Below are positions 7,374 to 63,378 of a stretch of DNA of 64,000 nucleotides, piece by piece. The position numbers were made by a program, and so were the translations under genes. Origin of the DNA: Candidatus Woesebacteria bacterium (GTDB lineage Bacteria > Patescibacteriota > Microgenomatia > UBA1400 > UBA1396). The DNA lies in NCBI GenBank assembly GCA_021208605.1, contig JAJOJK010000001.1, forward strand, positions 5,257 through 69,256, in the 5' to 3' direction. Positions within the stretch are counted from its first letter, which is position 1. Every line of letters begins with the position of its first letter. The notes under the pieces are model-generated. The model saw nothing but the letters and a program-made list of their open reading frames with translations, did not search any database and was not told the origin of the DNA.

Positions 7374-7430
7374 AGAGGAGTCATCTCTCTGAAAAGTCTC
7401 TTTTCAGAGTGGTGACTCCTTTTTGGGAAG
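7374..7430 (+). terminator. Intrinsic terminator after rnpB
   Basis: Long hairpin ggagtcatctctctgaaaag/cttttcagagtggtgactcc followed by a TTTTT run. Confidence 0.6.
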
Positions 7431-22384: not shown

Positions 22385-22416
22385 AAAAAGAGGCTCATGG
22401 TATGAGCCTCTTTTTC
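22385..22416. terminator. Bidirectional intrinsic terminator between the orphan gene and typA
   Basis: aaaaagaggctcat-ggt-atgagcctcttttt hairpin flanked by an A-run and a T-run. Confidence 0.6.
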
Positions 22417-26274: not shown

Positions 26275-27273
26275 TTAGTTGATTTCTTCCAGTTGAGCGA
26301 GCACCACACCCCGGCGGAGATAGGTGCCTTCTGGTACACACGTGACTAACTTGAGCTGTTTGGCAGAGAATTCTTGTTCAAGAATGTAGGTATCTTCAGG
26401 TTTGACTTCAACTTTTTTCTTGACTGAATAGGTGTACCGAATGCCGTCGTACGTAATGTAAATTTTTTCTCCCTCAGACATGGTCATGATTTTGCTGAAG
26501 ATGGACATGTAGCGCCGGGGATTTTTTTCGCTGGGATTGTAGAACTGTCGCAACACGGAGTGGCCAAAAATAACCGGTGCGCCGAGTTCTCCTGGATCAG
26601 CCGTGCCTGGATACTGAATGAGATTATTGTCGAGGTTCGTGCCGCCGATCTTGACTTCGGCATTGTGGATGTCGAGAGAGGGAATTTCCACAATATAGGT
26701 CTTCTCTTCGGCTGCTTGCTTTTCTAAGGACGCTCCAGCCACTTCTGTTTCCGGGAACCAGTTGGAGAGATTCGTGTAATCAAGATTGTCACGAATAACT
26801 TTTGGATTGATTTCTGGCTCTGTGGCGGCTTGGGCGGTAGGGATGGTTTGTGTTTGCCGGAGAATCGGAACATCTGGCAAAGGAGAAACGAGTTTTTCCA
26901 CTCGTAGGTCTGGAGATACGAAGACGAAGTACGACAAAATTGGCCACGCGGCATTCGCAATTATGACGCTTCCAAGCGTGACAAAGATGGCGGGCATGAG
27001 GCGAAACAAGCGCTGTCCAGCAGTCTCTTTTTGCATCTTCCAGTGCTGACGCCGAGCAAAGTTAACGAGATTGCGTTTGTGGTAGCGCTGCAAGCGTTGG
27101 CGAAAGGCGTGTTCGCGCTGAGTAAGGGTCTCAATGTGAATGTGAACGCGAAACATGAGGTTGTCAGCATCGGTGGAGATTTCGGTGGTGATACTTTCCG
27201 AAGCATCATCGAGCCATTCCCAGAAACGCTGGAAGCGATGTTTCAGCCAGTCGAGTGGGTTGGCGTGGTTCAT
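26275..27273 (-). CDS. Sortase family transpeptidase with a long N-terminal membrane-anchored extension
   Basis: Catalytic triad context: GHSVL (His), LKLVTCVPEG (TLxTC Cys), downstream RRG (Arg). Confidence 0.7.
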   Translation of the reverse strand: MNHANPLDWLKHRFQRFWEWLDDASESITTEISTDADNLMFRVHIHIETLTQREHAFRQRLQRYHKRNLVNFARRQHWKMQKETAGQRLFRLMPAIFVTLGSVIIANAAWPILSYFVFVSPDLRVEKLVSPLPDVPILRQTQTIPTAQAATEPEINPKVIRDNLDYTNLSNWFPETEVAGASLEKQAAEEKTYIVEIPSLDIHNAEVKIGGTNLDNNLIQYPGTADPGELGAPVIFGHSVLRQFYNPSEKNPRRYMSIFSKIMTMSEGEKIYITYDGIRYTYSVKKKVEVKPEDTYILEQEFSAKQLKLVTCVPEGTYLRRGVVLAQLEEIN

Positions 27274-29666
27274 TGCGATTTGTCGATACGGATGTTTACA
27301 GGAATACGGTCAGTGTCTTTGGGAAGGCGATTGAAAAGCCATCCAATCCAAGTTGGTTTGGAAGTGATGGTAAATCGTTCAATGCGAGTGTCTCCAGAAA
27401 GAATCTGTTCAGCTCGCGAGGTGTAGGCACCGGCAATTTTTTCGAGGATTGCACTGGCTTGGACAGTTGGTACGCCTTGGCCAGAGATTTCAGCTTCTAG
27501 AGTGTAGACACCTTCGCCTCGGATCGCGACTGATTTGGGCTCTAGATCAACGCTTTCTGGGAGGAGCGTTTGGTCGGCTTGCACTTGGTCGGATAAGAGT
27601 TGTTGGGCAGTGGCTTGTAAATCATCTTCGGCAATGCGCAGTGCTTGGCCTTCGACAGTGACTTTGACAGTCACAAACTTCGCTTCTTCACCGACTTCCA
27701 CAGACGGCGCGATGTCGGTAATCTCAACTTCATCGGTGAAGAAGACATACTGACCGTCTTCGGCGCTGCCCTCGATTTTTTCGACGAGTTGTGTTTTCCC
27801 AGCTTCGCTGAGGCGGTCGGCTGTATCATCAATGTCAGCTTGAGAAACGGCTTGGATTTCTCGACTGCTTCCGCCACTGAAAGCTGCATCATTTTTAGCT
27901 TCATATGAAGAGGAATCAAAGTTTGCGACGGTGAACGTTGTGTCTTCGCCGAGATTGCCTTCGGGACCAATATCGACCGCTGTGACGCCCACTTCACCAG
28001 TTCCAAACGAAATGGTTCGCGATTCGTCATTTTCTTGTGAGGAGGCTGAGGCGATCGTAATATCTTCATCGAGGGTAAAGGTGAGGCTGTTCGCGGTTAT
28101 TTGCGTGCCAGCGGGAAAACTTTTCTCCTGCGCTGTTTTATTGATCATTTTGACGCGACCGGTAGCCGGATCGCCGATGACCTTGCTGCCCGTGGTGGGT
28201 ACTTCTTCCTCCAGGGTGACACTTTCGGTAAAGGTAGTGGCTTGTAGAGCGGATTCACTCGCACTACTGACATTTTCTCCGACTACAAATGTATCAGTCA
28301 GCGAGAGCTCTTGTGTATTGAGCCAGATATCGACTTGTGTTTGGTAGCTTTGCGACAGCGCGAAGTAGCCACCGCCCAGTGTGAGCAGAAGTACAACAAT
28401 TATTCCGGCAGCAACCAGGGTAAGCGGTTTGCCTTTGAATGCCTTTCCTAGACCGGAAAATGTTTTTGGAAGGCGTGAGAATTGGGTGAGTAAACCGGTA
28501 GTTAATCCGGCGAGTGACGATTTTTTTGGAGAGGAGTCGTTGGGAGTTGCGGAATCGAGTCCGTCGACGGCGGTATGCGGCGTGGCAGCAGAGATTTCTG
28601 GATCGTCGTAGTGATGCATGTTGATTTGTGGGCCAGCTTGCTGGCCGACGGTATTGGACCCCTGAGAATTCGGGCTGAAATTTGGTTCACTGAAAGTATC
28701 GGTTGCGGTGGATTCTGGCTCTCCTGCGTCGGCTTCTGGATCCTGGGTGAGTCCAGTGTTTTTGGCAAATGACGGCGGAGCAAACCCGGCTGGAGGCGCA
28801 TTGAGCAGTGGTGCGTCTTCTCCACTCGTGCCTGGTGGGAGCACGACGTTGCTGGTTTCTTCGGCGGCTGGTGTGACAGGGGTGGTAGGTGTGGTCGCGC
28901 TGGCGAGGTGGGATGAATCGGCACTCGATGCTTCGGTACTAGATGTGTTGGTGTCTTTTGGATGCGTTGTGTCTTCTCCGGCAGAGAGCACTTCAAAACC
29001 ACCGGTGGTGATGGCATTTTCAGAAATATTTTGTGCGGAAAGTGTTTCGATTGAGGTACTGAATGTTGTGTGCAGTGCGTCTTCGACTTCGCTTGTGCTG
29101 CGATTATTGGGACTGAGGACGATGATTCGCTGTGGTGAAGTAATACCACTCGCTGTGAGGCGAGCTTGTAGTTCGACGATATCTTGCTGTATATCACCAC
29201 TCTTGCCGATCCGTTCGACTTGTTTTTCGGCGCCATCTTGGTATACAGAAATATCAAGGTATTGTGGTGTATCGCTGATCAGAAGTCCGGAGAAGTTAAC
29301 GCCGTGCTGGGCGCTTTGTTGTGCGGCTACGGTGTCGGTGAGTACAACGAAACCAAGAGGATCGAGTACTAAATCTTGCGACAGGCTTTTGAGAAAGCGC
29401 TTACGACCTTCGATTAAGTCATTTTCTTTGACCCAGTGGTGCGGCAAGATGTAGAGCACATTTTTGAGGGTGAGCCCGGCCTCGCCGAGATTGTCGAGGG
29501 CTTTGTCGACGGCGTCGTTGTAGGCCAAATCTTCGTCCTGTTGCAGGTCGATTATTGGGGAGTGATTGAGGATGGTTACTTTTGAGTCGACGAGCTGCCA
29601 AATAGCGGCGCTCACCCACTCATCACTCAGGACTAAGGCTAAATATTGTTGGGCAGATTGAGCCAT
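27270..29666 (-). CDS. Large hypothetical membrane-anchored surface protein (cytoplasmic N-domain, Ser/Thr/Pro-rich linker, TM, 330-aa extracellular C-domain)
   Basis: 798-aa ORF overlapping the sortase stop; single TM LTLVAAGIIVVLLLTLGGGYFAL; low-complexity PTTPVTPAAEETS linker. Confidence 0.55.
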   Translation of the reverse strand: MAQSAQQYLALVLSDEWVSAAIWQLVDSKVTILNHSPIIDLQQDEDLAYNDAVDKALDNLGEAGLTLKNVLYILPHHWVKENDLIEGRKRFLKSLSQDLVLDPLGFVVLTDTVAAQQSAQHGVNFSGLLISDTPQYLDISVYQDGAEKQVERIGKSGDIQQDIVELQARLTASGITSPQRIIVLSPNNRSTSEVEDALHTTFSTSIETLSAQNISENAITTGGFEVLSAGEDTTHPKDTNTSSTEASSADSSHLASATTPTTPVTPAAEETSNVVLPPGTSGEDAPLLNAPPAGFAPPSFAKNTGLTQDPEADAGEPESTATDTFSEPNFSPNSQGSNTVGQQAGPQINMHHYDDPEISAATPHTAVDGLDSATPNDSSPKKSSLAGLTTGLLTQFSRLPKTFSGLGKAFKGKPLTLVAAGIIVVLLLTLGGGYFALSQSYQTQVDIWLNTQELSLTDTFVVGENVSSASESALQATTFTESVTLEEEVPTTGSKVIGDPATGRVKMINKTAQEKSFPAGTQITANSLTFTLDEDITIASASSQENDESRTISFGTGEVGVTAVDIGPEGNLGEDTTFTVANFDSSSYEAKNDAAFSGGSSREIQAVSQADIDDTADRLSEAGKTQLVEKIEGSAEDGQYVFFTDEVEITDIAPSVEVGEEAKFVTVKVTVEGQALRIAEDDLQATAQQLLSDQVQADQTLLPESVDLEPKSVAIRGEGVYTLEAEISGQGVPTVQASAILEKIAGAYTSRAEQILSGDTRIERFTITSKPTWIGWLFNRLPKDTDRIPVNIRIDKSQ

Positions 29667-29712
29667 ACTTACTTATTTAAGCAGGAATTGGAGCGCTTGT
29701 CAGCCACTAGGT

Positions 29713-30241
29713 ATCGGGAGACACCCCTAGGCCTGTAATAATTTTGTTCATTTCATTTGTTTATATGTTTACATATGCCAGCAATTAACGCTCTCAAACA
29801 ATATCGGCCGAACACTATTTACCACGTTTATAACCGCGGTGTGAACAAACAAGACGTTTTTTTCTCTGAAAGAGACTATATGGTTTTTCGAAACTTGGCT
29901 CGGACGACACAGTACGAAATGGCAAAAACTGGATCGCAAATTGAGGTGTTCGCTTTTGCTCTTTTACCAAATCACTTCCATTTTATTCTTTGGCAGTACT
30001 ATGAACGCGACATGGTGCATTTTATGCGATCTTTGACGTTGAAATATGTGAAGTACGTAAATGAAGAGTATGAGCGAGTGGGAAATTTATTTATGAGACC
30101 GTATAAAGCTCGACTACTTTACACCCCAGTGCAAGTCGCAAAAGCCACGAGATATGTTTTGCAAAATCCGGTAGATGCAAACTTGCCTGCCGATTGGAAG
30201 CATGTGGGAACAAAGTTATAGGCCTAGGGGTGTCTCCCGAT
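29713..30241 (+). mobile_element. IS200/IS605-RAYT-like element: HUH Y1 transposase flanked by perfect 21-bp inverted repeats
   Basis: ATCGGGAGACACCCCTAGGCC at about 29713-29733 and its exact reverse complement GGCCTAGGGGTGTCTCCCGAT at about 30221-30241. Confidence 0.7.
29775..30221 (+). CDS. tnpA: IS200-like/REP-associated tyrosine (Y1, HUH) transposase
   Basis: HUH motif NHFHFIL, catalytic Tyr context RYVLQ, YHVYNRG N-terminus; about 148 aa. Confidence 0.75.
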   Translation: MPAINALKQYRPNTIYHVYNRGVNKQDVFFSERDYMVFRNLARTTQYEMAKTGSQIEVFAFALLPNHFHFILWQYYERDMVHFMRSLTLKYVKYVNEEYERVGNLFMRPYKARLLYTPVQVAKATRYVLQNPVDANLPADWKHVGTKL

Positions 30242-30244
30242 TCC

Positions 30245-32071
30245 TTAGTTTTTAAAACGCAAATACACCCGCCGCACCCCAGCGCTCACCGACTTCTGTT
30301 TAAAGATCTCAATCAAGCCAATTTCGCCAGTATGTTCCACATGTGGACCACCACAAAGTTCGCGGCTCACCCAGTTGTTCTTCTCTCCCACCGTGTACAC
30401 GCTCACGGTGTCAGGATACTTTTCCTTAAAAAATGCTAAAGCTCCAGAAGCAAGTGCCTCGTCTTTAGGGAGCACTTCTTTGTAAACAGGCCAGTCTTTT
30501 TCGATTTGTTCGTTGATCCATGCTTCGACTTGTTGCAGCTGATCCTCAGTCAATGCAGAGTCGTGAGAAAAGTCAAAGCGCAAGCGCTCAGCAGTGATGT
30601 TCGAGCCTTCCTGATGCACATGATCGCCTAAGACGTGACGCAAAGCCGCATGAAGCAAGTGCGTAGCAGTGTGGTAGCGAGTGGCGGCTTCAGAATGGTC
30701 CGCCAGTCCTCCCTTGAAAGTCTGACCAGACTGCTCTCGGGACAAATTTTGGTGACGAGCGAACTCATCCTCAAAGCGAGCGGGGTTTACTTTTTCGCCG
30801 CGTTCTTCGGCAATTTCTTGCGTCATCTCGATTGGGAAGCCGTAGGTTTGGTAGAGGTCGAAAGCAATTTGACCATCTAAAGAGTCGTACTTCTCGATTT
30901 CGCGGAGGCCTTTACGGAGCGCTTTACTGAACTTCTCTACTTCATCGACAATGGTGGATACAATTGACTCGCGATTCGCGTCGAGTTCAGGATACTGCAG
31001 TACGTAGGCTGGGTTACTGCACTGTTCGTTAACCAAACGAGCCATGATCGCGCTGTATTGCGTGTCATCTAAGCCGAGCTTAAAGAGTTCGCGCACTGCC
31101 CGGCGGATGAGGCGGCGCAGCACGTAGCCGCGTTCCTTATTACTGGGAGTGACCCCATCTTGCACCATAAAGATGCCAGCACGAACGTGGTCGGCGATAA
31201 TGCGCATGCTGCGAGTGTGGCTTTGGTAGGTGTGGTCAGAAATTTCTTCCAAAATGCGAATCACCGGCATAAATAACTCGGTTTGGTAGGCATCTGGTTC
31301 CGGCAGTTCCCCTTGAATCCAGTTAAAGATAGCGAGCATGCGTTCTAGGCCGAGACCAGTGTCGACATTATTTTTCTTCAGCGGCTCGTAGGATGCGTCT
31401 GCTGTTTTGTTGAACTGCATGAAGACATTGTTCCAAACTTCGACGAAGTCGCTGACGTCGTTAGCTGGTTCATCATTGAAATCGTCGGCAAAAGGATCGC
31501 CGTTGCCGGTGTAGTAGAAAATCTCAGTATCGGGGCCACAGGGGCCTGTTATGCCGGCTGGTCCCCACCAGTTTTCTGACTTGGGATAGTAATAGATGCG
31601 TTTTTCTGGATTGGAAACCCCTGCTTGGGTAAGAACCTCAAGCCAAATAGTGGCGGATTCCTCATCGCGTGGCGCGTCAGCGTCGCCTTCAAAAACGGTG
31701 ACAAAGAGCTTTTCTTTGTCGAGGCCCATGTACTCAGCGGCAGTCAGAAATTCCCAGCTCCAAGTAATAGCTTCTTTTTTAAAGTAATCACCAAGAGACC
31801 AGTTCCCGAGCATTTCAAAGAAAGTGAGATGCGTGCGATCGCCGACTTCGTCGATATCAACCGTTCGGATACATTTTTGTACATCAACTAAGCGAGTACC
31901 CTCCGGATGTGGCTGACCGAGTAGATATGGCACCAAAGGATGCATGCCAGCAGTAATAAATAAGGTAGTAGGATCATTATCAGGAACCAAAGAAGCAGAA
32001 GGAATGACGGCGTGTTCGCGCAGTTCAAAAAAACTCAGGAATTTGTGGCGAAGTTCTTGTGCTGTAATCAT
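30245..32071 (-). CDS. alaS: Alanine--tRNA ligase, short form lacking the C-terminal C-Ala/DHHA1 domain
   Basis: Class II aaRS catalytic core and editing domain motifs (HTATHLLH..., CGGPHV); ends after the editing domain. Confidence 0.85.
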   Translation of the reverse strand: MITAQELRHKFLSFFELREHAVIPSASLVPDNDPTTLFITAGMHPLVPYLLGQPHPEGTRLVDVQKCIRTVDIDEVGDRTHLTFFEMLGNWSLGDYFKKEAITWSWEFLTAAEYMGLDKEKLFVTVFEGDADAPRDEESATIWLEVLTQAGVSNPEKRIYYYPKSENWWGPAGITGPCGPDTEIFYYTGNGDPFADDFNDEPANDVSDFVEVWNNVFMQFNKTADASYEPLKKNNVDTGLGLERMLAIFNWIQGELPEPDAYQTELFMPVIRILEEISDHTYQSHTRSMRIIADHVRAGIFMVQDGVTPSNKERGYVLRRLIRRAVRELFKLGLDDTQYSAIMARLVNEQCSNPAYVLQYPELDANRESIVSTIVDEVEKFSKALRKGLREIEKYDSLDGQIAFDLYQTYGFPIEMTQEIAEERGEKVNPARFEDEFARHQNLSREQSGQTFKGGLADHSEAATRYHTATHLLHAALRHVLGDHVHQEGSNITAERLRFDFSHDSALTEDQLQQVEAWINEQIEKDWPVYKEVLPKDEALASGALAFFKEKYPDTVSVYTVGEKNNWVSRELCGGPHVEHTGEIGLIEIFKQKSVSAGVRRVYLRFKN

Positions 32072-32268
32072 GCGTGGATTGTAGCATACGACAGGGTTTG
32101 CGACAGGTATCATGCTGAGTCGGAAACAGCAGATTCATTCGGTATATTTTCGGAATTTGGGTATAATTCCTACTTGCATTCAGTTATCAAAATATTGATA
32201 CTGGAATGAGGCGGAAACGCTCAAAAAACACAAGAAAACAAAGCAAGTCGAACAAAAGCAAGGGAAAT

Positions 32269-40185: not shown

Positions 40186-40220
40186 CGGAGAGGGCGCGGT
40201 GGGCGAATGCCCACCGCGCC
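40186..40220. repeat. GC-rich near-perfect stem-loop between the dsbA-like gene and ccdA
   Basis: gggcgcggtgggc-gaat-gcccaccgcgccc (13-bp stem) with outer gagag/ctctc arms. Confidence 0.5.
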
Positions 40221-40251
40221 CGGCTCTCTCATTCTCAGAGAATACTGACCG

Positions 40252-44311: not shown

Positions 44312-44446
44312 TCGATTATCATTTTGTTCCCGGGCAGGATTTACGACTGCGTTCGCCATAGCTCACTCCGCATGCACTACCCAGGTGCTTCGCACTTGGC
44401 GGCGCGAACAGAGGCTTTTTTGCCATCACCCCAAAACTACAAAAAA

Positions 44447-44468
44447 AGCCGAAGGCGGCTTTTTTTAT
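44447..44468. terminator. Intrinsic terminator hairpin (A-run/T-run flanked)
   Basis: aaaaaaagccgaaggcggcttttttt. Confidence 0.5.
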
Positions 44469-44470
44469 AG

Positions 44471-44541
44471 TTCCCGGGCAAGGATTCGAACCCTGAATAA
44501 CTGTGCCAGAAACAGTTGTGATGCCATTTCACTACCCGGGA
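44471..44541 (-). tRNA. tRNA-Gln(CTG), CCA not encoded
   Basis: Cloverleaf: acceptor TCCCGGG/CCCGGGA, D-arm GTGAAATGGCATCAC, anticodon arm ACTGT-TTCTGGC-ACAGT, T-arm CAGGGTTCGAATCCTTG. Confidence 0.8.
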
Positions 44542-44611: not shown

Positions 44612-44640
44612 GAAAAGCCCCGCACGGAGTGCGGGGCTTT
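44612..44640. terminator. Intrinsic terminator hairpin
   Basis: aaaagccccgcacggagtgcggggcttt flanked by A- and T-runs; downstream of the small minus-strand membrane gene. Confidence 0.55.
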
Positions 44641-58088: not shown

Positions 58089-58534
58089 ATGCAAAAGAGA
58101 TGTTCTTCTTGCAAACTTCTTCTGAACGAAGAAGAATTTACGTGGAAGTATAAAAATGTAAAGAGATCCTTGTATTGTCGCACGTGTTCTCGGAGCTATG
58201 TCAGAGAACACTACAAAAGAATCGAGCCTATTATCTCAATAAAGCTCATCAGCAAAATAAAATAAAAAGAGATAAAATACAGCTACTTATAGGCAAGTAT
58301 CTTTCATCTCATCCCTGTGTTGATTGCGGCGAAACAGATATTCTTGTTTTGGAGTTTGATCATAGAGAAAGAAGCAGTAAAATAGGAGCAATTAGCGACT
58401 TAGTGAGAAAGGGTCTCCCTTTCTCAGCAATTCGCCAAGAGATGAGTAAGTGCGAAGTCCGCTGTGCAAACTGCCACCGCAGGAAAACAGCAGTGGAAAA
58501 CAAGAGTTGGAAACTCAATTTTTCGCGCCCGTAG
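58089..58534 (+). pseudogene. HNH homing-endonuclease-like protein (N-terminal Cys4 finger + HNH), frameshifted in an A4 run (about 58215)
   Basis: 59-aa ORF (CSSCK...CRTC) in one frame and 58175-58534 in another with CVDCGE...EFDH...CANCH; one extra A would join them (…EHYKKNRAYY…). Confidence 0.55.
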
Positions 58535-63064: not shown

Positions 63065-63138
63065 CGGGTCAGTAGCTCAGTCGGTTAGAGCATCTGCCTC
63101 TTAAGCAGAGTGTCGTGGGTTCGAGTCCCACCTGACCC
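63065..63138 (+). tRNA. tRNA-Lys(CTT), CCA not encoded
   Basis: Acceptor GGGTCAG/CTGACCC, D-arm GCTCAGTCGGTTAGAGC, anticodon arm TCTGC-CTCTTAA-GCAGA, T-loop TTCGAGT. Confidence 0.85.
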
Positions 63139-63145
63139 ACTTTCA

Positions 63146-63177
63146 TAAAAAAAGACAGCCAAGGCTGTCTTTTTTTA
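63146..63177. terminator. Bidirectional intrinsic terminator after tRNA-Lys
   Basis: aaaaaaagacagccaaggctgtcttttttt. Confidence 0.6.
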
Positions 63178-63378
63178 TGAAAATGGGCGAGTTGGCAGAT
63201 GAGAGGCCATTTGGGGTCCGACGGGACCGAGCATACCGAATGTAAAATAATGCGAGGTGACCCTAGTGCATGCGGAGTGAGATTCAAAAGTATTTACTAA
63301 AAATAATAGTTTTGTTTTCATTAACACCGTAATTCTCTCATACCTGGTTTGTCTTTTGATAGCGTATGATGAGTGTAT

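Follow-up and report, generated by a model that had tools for sequence, protein, structure and literature searches.

A compact unit of 537 bp (29709-30245) occupies an intergenic space in the window, that is, the whole 64-kb stretch of contig JAJOJK010000001.1 (GCA_021208605.1, Candidatus Woesebacteria) analysed here. The unit holds a tnpA-like gene, predicted to encode a Y1 tyrosine transposase of the HUH type, enclosed by the two arms of a long inverted repeat. It takes up most of the 578 bp that separate the start of a gene for a 798-aa protein from the stop codon of alaS, and tnpA is antisense to both. A first-pass annotation made from the letters alone had placed it between a sortase operon and alaS, and this placement holds, with the start of the 798-aa gene (sortase next to it) on one side and the alaS stop on the other. 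The arrangement resembles the TIRtrons, or TIRYT genes, of Di Nocera, De Gregorio & Rocco 2013 (BMC Genomics 14:522, PMC3733652), which are genes like those of REP-associated tyrosine transposases (RAYTs; REP, repetitive extragenic palindrome) with long inverted repeats that are not REPs. The features of the locus follow, with L-numbers denoting fetched comparison loci as opposed to the window element itself.

29775-30221, plus strand: tnpA-like gene, 148 aa, Y1 HUH class 2 (RAYT/TIRYT type), with H67-F-H69, W72-Q73 and Y127-VLQ-N131-P132
29709-29738, no strand assigned: left arm AGGTATCGGGAGACACCCCTAGGCCTGTAA, with its perfect core at 29713-29733
29728-29738, plus strand: inner motif of the left arm, TAGGCCTGTAA, common to the L003 element (same genomic context) and the L172 element (unrelated context)
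29739-29774, plus strand: A+T-rich leader from the left arm to the start codon, partly conserved with L003 (TTTTGTTC...)
30216-30245, no strand assigned: right arm TTATAGGCCTAGGGGTGTCTCCCGATTCCT, with its perfect core at 30221-30241
30245-32113, minus strand: alaS, neighbour outside the unit, last codons …YLRF-KN*
27270-29666, minus strand: 798-aa gene, neighbour outside the unit, followed by sortase, ruvX and yceG

The enzyme and its inverted-repeat arms

The start of tnpA was set at the ATG at 29775 (MPAINALKQY…YHVYNRG…) by alignment with homologues. GenBank carries the gene as LRY65_05545 (window 29880-30221; L001 10001-10342), a 113-aa "hypothetical protein" that begins at Met36; this is an internal methionine, and starting there drops the conserved YHVYNRG strand. 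Sequence comparison supports a 148-aa RAYT-like tyrosine transposase starting at 29775 as the correct product. The reading frame is intact and there is no second open reading frame (ORF) inside the unit. Both catalytic elements are present, the HUH motif as H67-F68-H69 within LLPNHFHFILWQ and the tyrosine as Tyr127 within ATRYVLQNP. H67-F-H69 and Y127 are invariant in alignments of 14 and of nine sequences, and N131 and P132 are likewise invariant, together with H67, F68, H69 and Y127, in the nine short-form sequences.

Profile searches place the protein at the edge of the recorded families. Y1_Tnp, the Pfam family that the first-pass annotation had named for the classification, is the sole Pfam match, at 22 bits against a gathering score of 23 and so below it. 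The sole NCBIfam match is REP_Tyr_transpos (NF047646, an equivalog) at 37.1 bits against a cut-off of 80. A profile built from the protein and 13 homologues matches ISDra2 TnpA (E = 6e-4) and E. coli TnpAREP, structure 4ER8 (E = 0.02), with the HUH motif and the tyrosine aligned to catalytic residues such as those of ISDra2 TnpA. A single-sequence search of Protein Data Bank (PDB) sequences returned only matches to G-protein-coupled receptors, which we discarded as spurious. An AlphaFold2 model built from 61 sequences is of high confidence (pLDDT 93.7, pTM 0.87). Its best Foldseek match in the PDB is 4ER8, TnpAREP with a bound REP hairpin (TM 0.71, root-mean-square deviation 2.5 Å over 141 columns), with the ISDra2, IS608 and IS200 transposases next at TM 0.53-0.60, and all of the top 28 matches are Y1 transposases. 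The combination of NHFH, WQ and Y127-VLQ-NP therefore indicates a class-2, RAYT-like enzyme rather than a canonical IS200 transposase. Motifs and predicted structure together assign the window protein to the Y1 HUH enzymes, in the RAYT/TnpAREP class and not in canonical IS200.

The closest relatives of the protein are metagenome proteins of 143-150 aa with 41-61% identity. Most of the family consists of Patescibacteria "transposases" of 200-245 aa that carry an additional insert and are extended at the C-terminus. When 1.84 billion cluster representatives were searched exhaustively, 12,224 proteins matched at E ≤ 1e-3, 2,007 of them at E ≤ 1e-10, and the best 150 include about 20 short forms. 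A metagenome scan with the protein found only relatives of at most 40% identity and added no orthologues for arm covariation, and a genome scan with the short-form alignment, whose best match was 39%, supplied loci for the family-wide flank survey described below.

The repeats around the gene were a central claim of the first-pass annotation, and they are exactly as described: ATCGGGAGACACCCCTAGGCC at 29713-29733 on the plus strand is the perfect 21-nt reverse complement of 30221-30241. The quoted distance of 509 bp is about right: 487 nt separate the two 21-mers, whose starts are 508 nt from each other. The repeat reaches 30 nt on each side (29709-29738 and 30216-30245), with 28 of 30 positions complementary (93%) and 477 nt between the arms, and a gapped alignment lengthens it to ~44 nt (29706-29749 and 30208-30249). 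The left arm ends 36 nt upstream of the tnpA start codon. On the other side tnpA runs into the right arm, its final codon and its stop codon overlapping the inner motif TTATAGGCCTA (30216-30226), and the outer end of that arm reaches the alaS stop codon (30245-30247). Allowing up to three mismatches, the 21-mer matches the window at these two sites only, and none of 100 dinucleotide-preserving shuffles of the window produced any match to it. The inverted repeat around tnpA is thus real and non-random, and the flanking repeats are in inverted orientation.

The first-pass annotation had taken inverted flanks of this kind as a mark of RAYTs and had suggested a genome-wide search for REP-like dispersal. 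The enzyme side of that interpretation stands: an HUH transposase with inverted-repeat flanks falls on the RAYT/TnpAREP side by its class-2 YVLQNP motif, the NCBIfam REP_Tyr_transpos match and the structural match to 4ER8 (TM 0.71). The REP side does not, as the arms lack the features of REPs. Either arm folded by itself as DNA reaches -2 to -6 kcal/mol, no better than shuffles (z -0.9 to +0.8, about zero), and neither end of the arms has the GT[AG]G foot of a REP (no GTAG or GTGG). The window arms contain only a degenerate mini-palindrome, GGGAGACACCCC, where relatives have perfect ones of the GGGAGACTCCC type. No further copies of the 21-mer (up to three mismatches), of its 10-12-nt sub-motifs or of the inner motif were found in the 64-kb window, and the exact 21-mer has no match in 185,579 representative genomes, a set that does not include the species itself. 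A tblastn search of the window gave one match only, so there is no second tnpA in the 64 kb. Within these searches the arms therefore show no association with REPs, and the unit does not seem to be the source of a dispersed REP family. The same annotation had allowed that a 21-mer confined to this site, joined with a protein grouping firmly with canonical IS200 TnpA, would point to an unusual insertion sequence; the 21-mer was found only here, and the protein does not group with canonical IS200.

Related elements and family-wide flanks

A diverged counterpart at the same position is found in L003, a 2.3-kb contig of another metagenome-assembled genome (MAG), which has the same order of 798-aa gene start, tnpA and alaS end. 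Identity between the window and L003 is 61% for TnpA, 81% for the C-terminus of the alaS product and 53% for the 798-aa protein. Synonymous divergence (dS) is saturated for every gene pair and nonsynonymous divergence (dN) is 0.32 for tnpA; dN/dS is not computable at saturated dS, so we state the conservation of TnpA qualitatively, as exceeding neutral expectation. The L003 tnpA reading frame is intact with all catalytic residues present, which together with the synonymous saturation points to long-standing purifying selection on tnpA. The L003 arms are TCAGCTGTCAGCTTTAGGCCTGTAA / TTATGGGCCTAAGGCTGTCAGCTGA and have the inner motifs TAGGCCTGTAA / TTAYRGGCCTA in common with the window. Several outer positions have changed relative to the window on both arms in a compensating manner. 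A 9-nt direct repeat around the L003 element, GCTGACAGC, was considered as a target-site duplication and rejected, since it arises from the palindromic CAGCTG in the arms.

Two further short-form elements, L171 and L172, lie in contexts unrelated to that of the window element. L172, between a UDG gene and an AAA gene, has a 27-nt inverted repeat (93% complementary) with the same inner motif, and L171, beside an HD-domain gene, has a 28-nt inverted repeat (96% complementary). Comparison of the window arms with those of L003, L171 and L172 reveals that the outer 15-19 nt vary from locus to locus while the inner 11 nt are conserved. In an ungapped alignment of the four arm pairs (window, L003, L172 and L171), standard pairs make up 94% of the cells and 15 of the 25 pairs change on both sides. 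None of 500 shuffles reached any of these measures, and sliding the partner arm by one to three columns lowered pairing to 29-45%. The arms are therefore complementary within each element, while the outer sequence is free to differ between elements. Arm positions that are not Watson-Crick pairs are mostly G·T on the tnpA-sense strand (seven GT against one AC across the loci with dominant inverted repeats), and L171 and L172 add one position each. This bias is suggestive of the pattern expected from selection on a single-stranded sense-strand stem.

The closest empty counterpart of the L172 site is that of L175/L176, where the flanking proteins are 84-92% identical and the element is absent. 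It contains no palindrome resembling the L172 arms, in a region too diverged for exact boundaries to be drawn. The TATAAT of the L172 arm can be matched to a native TACAAT there, but the sequences are alignable in two ways and we make no claim from it. The L172 left arm (710-737 of a Logan SRR22387862 contig) directly abuts the ATG of the divergent UDG gene and, read on the UDG strand, presents AAGG and a perfect TATAAT 8 nt before that ATG, so that it may double as a UDG promoter or leader. The first UDG codons of L172 differ from those of the element-free L175.

A survey of homologous loci, most of them from Patescibacteria, compared the 120 nt upstream of each start with the 120 nt downstream of each stop, in both orientations and against shuffles. 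Of 149 analysable loci, 125 (~84%) have significant matching flanks, with repeats specific to the locus. The upstream match typically lies 10-50 nt ahead of the start codon and the downstream one 0-25 nt past the stop. Such flanks seem to be the rule, at least among the Patescibacteria relatives of the window element. At most loci each flank is itself a small palindrome, such as CTAAGGGTCCGACCCTTAG, ACAAGGTTCGACCTTGT or GCAGGGAGACTCCCTGC. The matching is predominantly direct at 58 loci, predominantly inverted, as in the window, at 28, and indistinguishable at 39. The flank motif almost never recurs elsewhere in the 10-20 kb around Patescibacteria loci, and is dispersed in a few loci from outside the candidate phyla radiation (CPR), for example L079.

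One short form, L004 (143 aa, 46% identical), has four alternating copies of GAAGGGTAATCCT on each side, an arrangement like that of bacterial interspersed mosaic elements (BIMEs). On its Logan contig (SRR14069906; 7531-7636 and 8110-8215) the copies are 26-29 nt apart and form two ~95-bp blocks that are direct repeats of each other, resembling BIMEs or REPINs, and the rest of the 17-kb contig has a single doubtful match with two mismatches, at 2868. Two MAGs each contain two diverged paralogues (L008 and L011 in DS4.bin43, L012 and L043 in UBA10108), and such paralogues are bracketed by different cognate repeats, for example ACAAGGTTCGACCTTGT and AGGTGCGACCTATGCCATAGGTCGCACCT. These paralogue-specific repeats mirror the rule of one RAYT, one REP family.

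Proposed origin, persistence and recognition of the unit

The same locus occurs on contig JAJOIK010000006 of GCA_021209405.1 and in two further MAGs. The 90% protein cluster contains two contigs only, and the third MAG has the same locus, so that all three MAGs of the species carry the unit, at one locus per MAG. In the third MAG (L174; GCA_021208155.1, contig JAJOJZ010000019) the region is 99.94% identical over 4.9 kb with three indels. These interrupt tnpA (called at 100 aa) as well as the 798-aa gene (573 aa and fragments), and they are more suggestive of errors in assembly or polishing than of true pseudogenes. A same-species empty site, looked for through the cluster of 100%-identical alaS, was not found; L174 too carries the unit.

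Relatives graded by alaS homology do provide empty sites. The unit is absent from L168, L169 and L170, whose alaS is 86, 76 and 73% identical, respectively, and where alaS is followed directly by the 798-aa homologue after a spacer of 47-57 bp, with the downstream order of sortase, ruvX and yceG unchanged. About 40 bp of native spacer upstream of the 798-aa gene (…ATTCCTGCTTAAAT…ATG; …ATTCTTGCTTTAATG…ATG) are retained outside the left arm. At the other end, the window and the unit-free relatives have different final alaS codons, two to four in number (YLRF-KN* as opposed to YLRF-AA*, YLRF-AAQK* and YLRR-A*), which places one boundary of the unit at the very 3' end of alaS. No direct target-site duplication and no TTAC-like border is seen at the unit edges, where the first-pass annotation had proposed a check for TTAC-like features. 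G+C content is 41% in the unit and 50% in both neighbours, and differs in the same direction in L003, L171 and L172. The 47-bp spacer of the L168 empty site (GCA_964447905.1, 6831-6860) has a GCCTAGGG-CC-A-GG-CCCT palindrome, which has GCCTAGGG and a small G/C hairpin in common with the window arm and is similar to AGGGCCAGGCCCT, the flank motif of L029, an unrelated family member. Possible explanations are a solo arm that remained when the unit was lost, a preferred target, or a chance occurrence (p ~0.03 by a hand estimate).

We consider it probable (at roughly 0.65) that the unit is a persistent single-copy TIRtron-like element whose arms are the cognate single-strand DNA sites of its enzyme. 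Y1 HUH enzymes such as those of IS608 and ISDra2 and E. coli TnpAREP are known to act on structured single-stranded DNA, which they bind and cleave via a 5'-phosphotyrosine. We infer by analogy that the arms are cognate sites that would be bound and cut as single-stranded DNA by the unit's own class-2 Y1 HUH enzyme. On the tnpA-sense strand the two arms could pair into a "panhandle" of 25-30 bp joining both ends, composed of the conserved inner duplex (TAGGCCTGTAA / TTATAGGCCTA) and the variable outer duplex. We hypothesize that the unit reached the 3' end of alaS once, by HUH-type single-strand transposition, and that it has since persisted vertically as a very low-activity or domesticated element rather than as a proliferating insertion sequence.

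Several points weigh against this interpretation. Any activity of the enzyme or the element is a prediction, and neither an excised circle nor an empty donor nor a further copy turned up in the assembled sequences and the 64-kb window. The arms are not hairpins on their own, unlike all studied Y1 substrates, and a panhandle has no experimental precedent; to our knowledge, the substrates of every Y1 enzyme studied so far form hairpins. The covariation must be interpreted with caution because it rests on four elements, three of them in unrelated loci, and a copying mechanism could give the same result. The G·T bias comes from about ten positions, some of them inherited, and is suggestive only. 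Because the window, L003 and the empty L168 are roughly equidistant, one ancestral insertion followed by loss is indistinguishable from independent insertions at the same site. Dispersed copies of the arms are also possible beyond the 64-kb scan, which leaves ~345 kb more of the contig and the other contigs.

The most familiar alternative is an ordinary, currently mobile insertion sequence of the IS200 group, with a class-1 TnpA and ends that are inverted by chance. The unit is small (537 bp) with a single tnpA-only ORF of IS200-like length, Y1_Tnp is its sole Pfam match, its G+C content is below that of the host, and the site is filled in some relatives and empty in others. Moreover, the 58 loci with dominant direct repeats have hairpins in direct orientation, like the left and right ends of IS200/IS605 elements. 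However, the motifs are Y---NP and NHFH rather than Y---Q and DH[VI]H, the Pfam score falls short (22 against 23), and the best structural match is TnpAREP and not IS608 or ISDra2. The unit is also present in single copy in the window and in the protein collection, the same site is filled in a relative with saturated dS, and the borders have no subterminal hairpins and no TTAC-like target or duplication. We regard this explanation as very unlikely. A different origin for the arms would be the splitting, at its apex, of a host alaS terminator hairpin by a short-ended element (TAGGCC…GGCCTA), which would leave half of the hairpin as the outer part of each arm. Many long intergenic hairpins of this host (arms of 12-33 nt, loops of 2-4 nt) are in keeping with it, as is the location of the right arm, which in all four short-form loci with inverted repeats touches or overlaps a convergent gene at its stop codon, the place of terminators. 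No two loci have the same outer arm while the inner motif stays conserved, and the L168 empty site has a small palindrome, AGGGCC-A-GGCCCT, at the same place. Yet the empty site for L172 in L175/L176 has no palindrome resembling the L172 arms, and a split hairpin does not explain the complete palindromes on each flank, the direct repeats or the four plus four copies seen across the family. A hairpin split by 480 nt would furthermore lose its function and decay, whereas the window and L003 arms stay complementary despite saturated dS, and in L003 and L171 the neighbouring gene takes its final codons and its stop from the arm. Such an origin seems to us quite unlikely.

It might also be argued that the inverted repeat acts mainly as RNA rather than as a DNA substrate of the enzyme, either through pairing of the ends of the tnpA transcript or as a stem in alaS read-through, where a double-stranded stem could be processed in an RNase III-like manner or insulate the operon from the inserted antisense gene. 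Folded as RNA, the 576-nt region closes on the arms as a stem (z = -5), a result that follows from the inverted repeat itself. The arms covary, the G·U-compatible mismatches favour the tnpA-sense strand, and read-through is likely given the 47-57-bp spacers of relatives at the site of the unit. A sense transcript containing the whole left arm would nevertheless require a promoter outside the unit, for which there is no room in L172, where the arm abuts the UDG start codon. A promoter scan found no sigma-70 consensus promoter in the A+T-rich leader or the rest of the unit, and an Rfam scan of the unit gave no match. The G·T bias lies on the strand opposite to the alaS read-through transcript, and most flanks in the family are local hairpins or direct repeats, which are better suited to protein recognition of DNA ends than to RNA pairing over a distance. 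A mainly RNA-level role is accordingly improbable in our view. None of these alternatives displaces the persistent TIRtron-like element as our preferred interpretation. A stronger form of it would have the two ends recognized as one long-range duplex, the panhandle, by a core-only class-2 Y1 enzyme, with complementarity selected through compensatory change as synonymous sites became saturated; we consider this form unlikely.

If panhandle recognition were true, it would represent a mode of end recognition undescribed for any HUH transposase. RAYT-type enzymes are the textbook "domesticated" bacterial transposases; we know of RAYT biochemistry only for the E. coli enzyme with true REP hairpins. 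The locus offers a minimal example, a 148-aa core enzyme between two arms that are not hairpins, with no repeats dispersed through the 64 kb, in a CPR genome that has little room for selfish DNA. If the panhandle reading holds, retention of a single-copy gene in the minimal genomes of Patescibacteria would suggest a host role in single-stranded DNA processing rather than self-propagation. The practical value is modest, namely a compact pair of substrate and enzyme for the study of class-2 Y1 end recognition.

Other features of the surroundings are recorded here for completeness. The alanyl-tRNA synthetase (AlaRS) is short (608-622 aa), with tRNA-synt_2c and tRNA_SAD as its only recorded domains and an equal length in all close relatives. 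E. coli AlaRS, at ~875 aa, represents a longer bacterial form with a C-terminal domain, and this domain seems to be missing in the present lineage. The 798-aa protein has a long low-complexity stretch rich in Ser, Thr, Pro and Ala, has only a faint match to Baseplate_J, and evolves fast, with 53-56% identity where AlaRS holds 81-86%. The sortase gene (26275-27273) overlaps the end of the 798-aa gene by 4 nt. Nearly perfect hairpins occur in the window at 63128-63195, 7376-7420, 58392-58438, 44435-44472, 22385-22415, 40192-40221 and 44614-44640; several have A/T runs on both sides, like bidirectional terminators, and the longest begins inside the 3' end of tRNA-Lys (63066-63140).

Comparison with known systems

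REPtrons, in which a TnpAREP/RAYT gene is flanked by REPs or REPINs, are reported by Nunvar 2010, Bertels & Rainey 2011 and Ton-Hoang 2012, and the 4ER8 structure reportedly comes from Messing 2012. The window unit is like a REPtron in its class-2 Y---NP motif, in having 4ER8 as its best structural match, and in being a gene present once in the window with inverted cognate repeats, a repeat of its own for each paralogue or orthologue, and apparently vertical inheritance. It differs in that its arms neither form palindromic hairpins nor carry a GT[AG]G foot, that no dispersed copies of them occur within the 64-kb scan, and that its NF047646 score of 37.1 bits is below the equivalog cut-off of 80.

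Similarities with the IS200/IS605 transposases (IS200, IS608, ISDra2) comprise the Y1 HUH fold, the length of ~150 aa, the tnpA-only organization over 0.5-0.7 kb and the presumed single-strand DNA chemistry. Quentin 2018 (PMC6006769) characterizes class 1 (IS200) by DH[VI]H and Y---Q, and class 2 (TnpAREP/RAYT and relatives) by Y---NP. The window protein has neither of the class-1 motifs and a lower TM with these enzymes (0.53-0.60), and the unit has a long inverted repeat in place of subterminal hairpins, contains no tnpB and is present once in the 64 kb rather than in several copies. The same study equates most TIRYTs with subclass 2.1, which corresponds to group 1 of Bertels, and found no flanking structures for it (PMC6006769). 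The window protein is similar to this subclass in its NH[YF]H, W[EQ] and Y..LNP-type motifs and in having no REP family, and the Patescibacteria homologues of 200-245 aa are similar to it in length. It differs in having no C-terminal extension, and any placement in subclass 2.1 is tentative, by motif. The matched flanks that our survey suggests to be the rule among Patescibacteria relatives contrast with the statement for subclass 2.1.

Bertels 2017 (PMC5581495) portrays RAYTs as single-copy, vertically inherited and housekeeping-like, and reports few dispersed flanking 16-mers for group 1. The window locus may fit this picture: one copy lies in the window, the unit occurs at one locus per MAG in the three MAGs, and the same site is filled in L003 with saturated dS, whereas three other relatives do not have the unit.

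TIRtrons are the closest described category. Their repeats often have no dispersed family, and GGGGWSAS is common to some of the terminal inverted repeats and is not a defining feature (PMC3733652). The window unit is like a TIRtron in having a RAYT-like Y1 HUH gene closely flanked by long inverted repeats unrelated to GTAG REPs, in its low or single copy number, often accompanied by the absence of a dispersed family, and in flanks that sometimes overlap the 3' end of the gene. With respect to GGGGWSAS, the left arm read on the other strand, GGGGTGTC, agrees at seven of eight positions and is not an exact match. The differences lie in host, protein and arms. Described TIRtrons come from Proteobacteria, Acidobacteria and similar phyla, whereas the window element belongs to Woesebacteria (Patescibacteria); described examples are mostly subclass 2.1 proteins of ~238 aa with a C-terminal helix-turn-helix, whereas the window protein is a 148-aa core; and in elements of the window type the arm has an inner 11 nt conserved from element to element and an outer part that covaries. 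The unit fits the TIRtron/TIRYT definition and the arrangement as such is already known, here with a core-only enzyme in the Patescibacteria.

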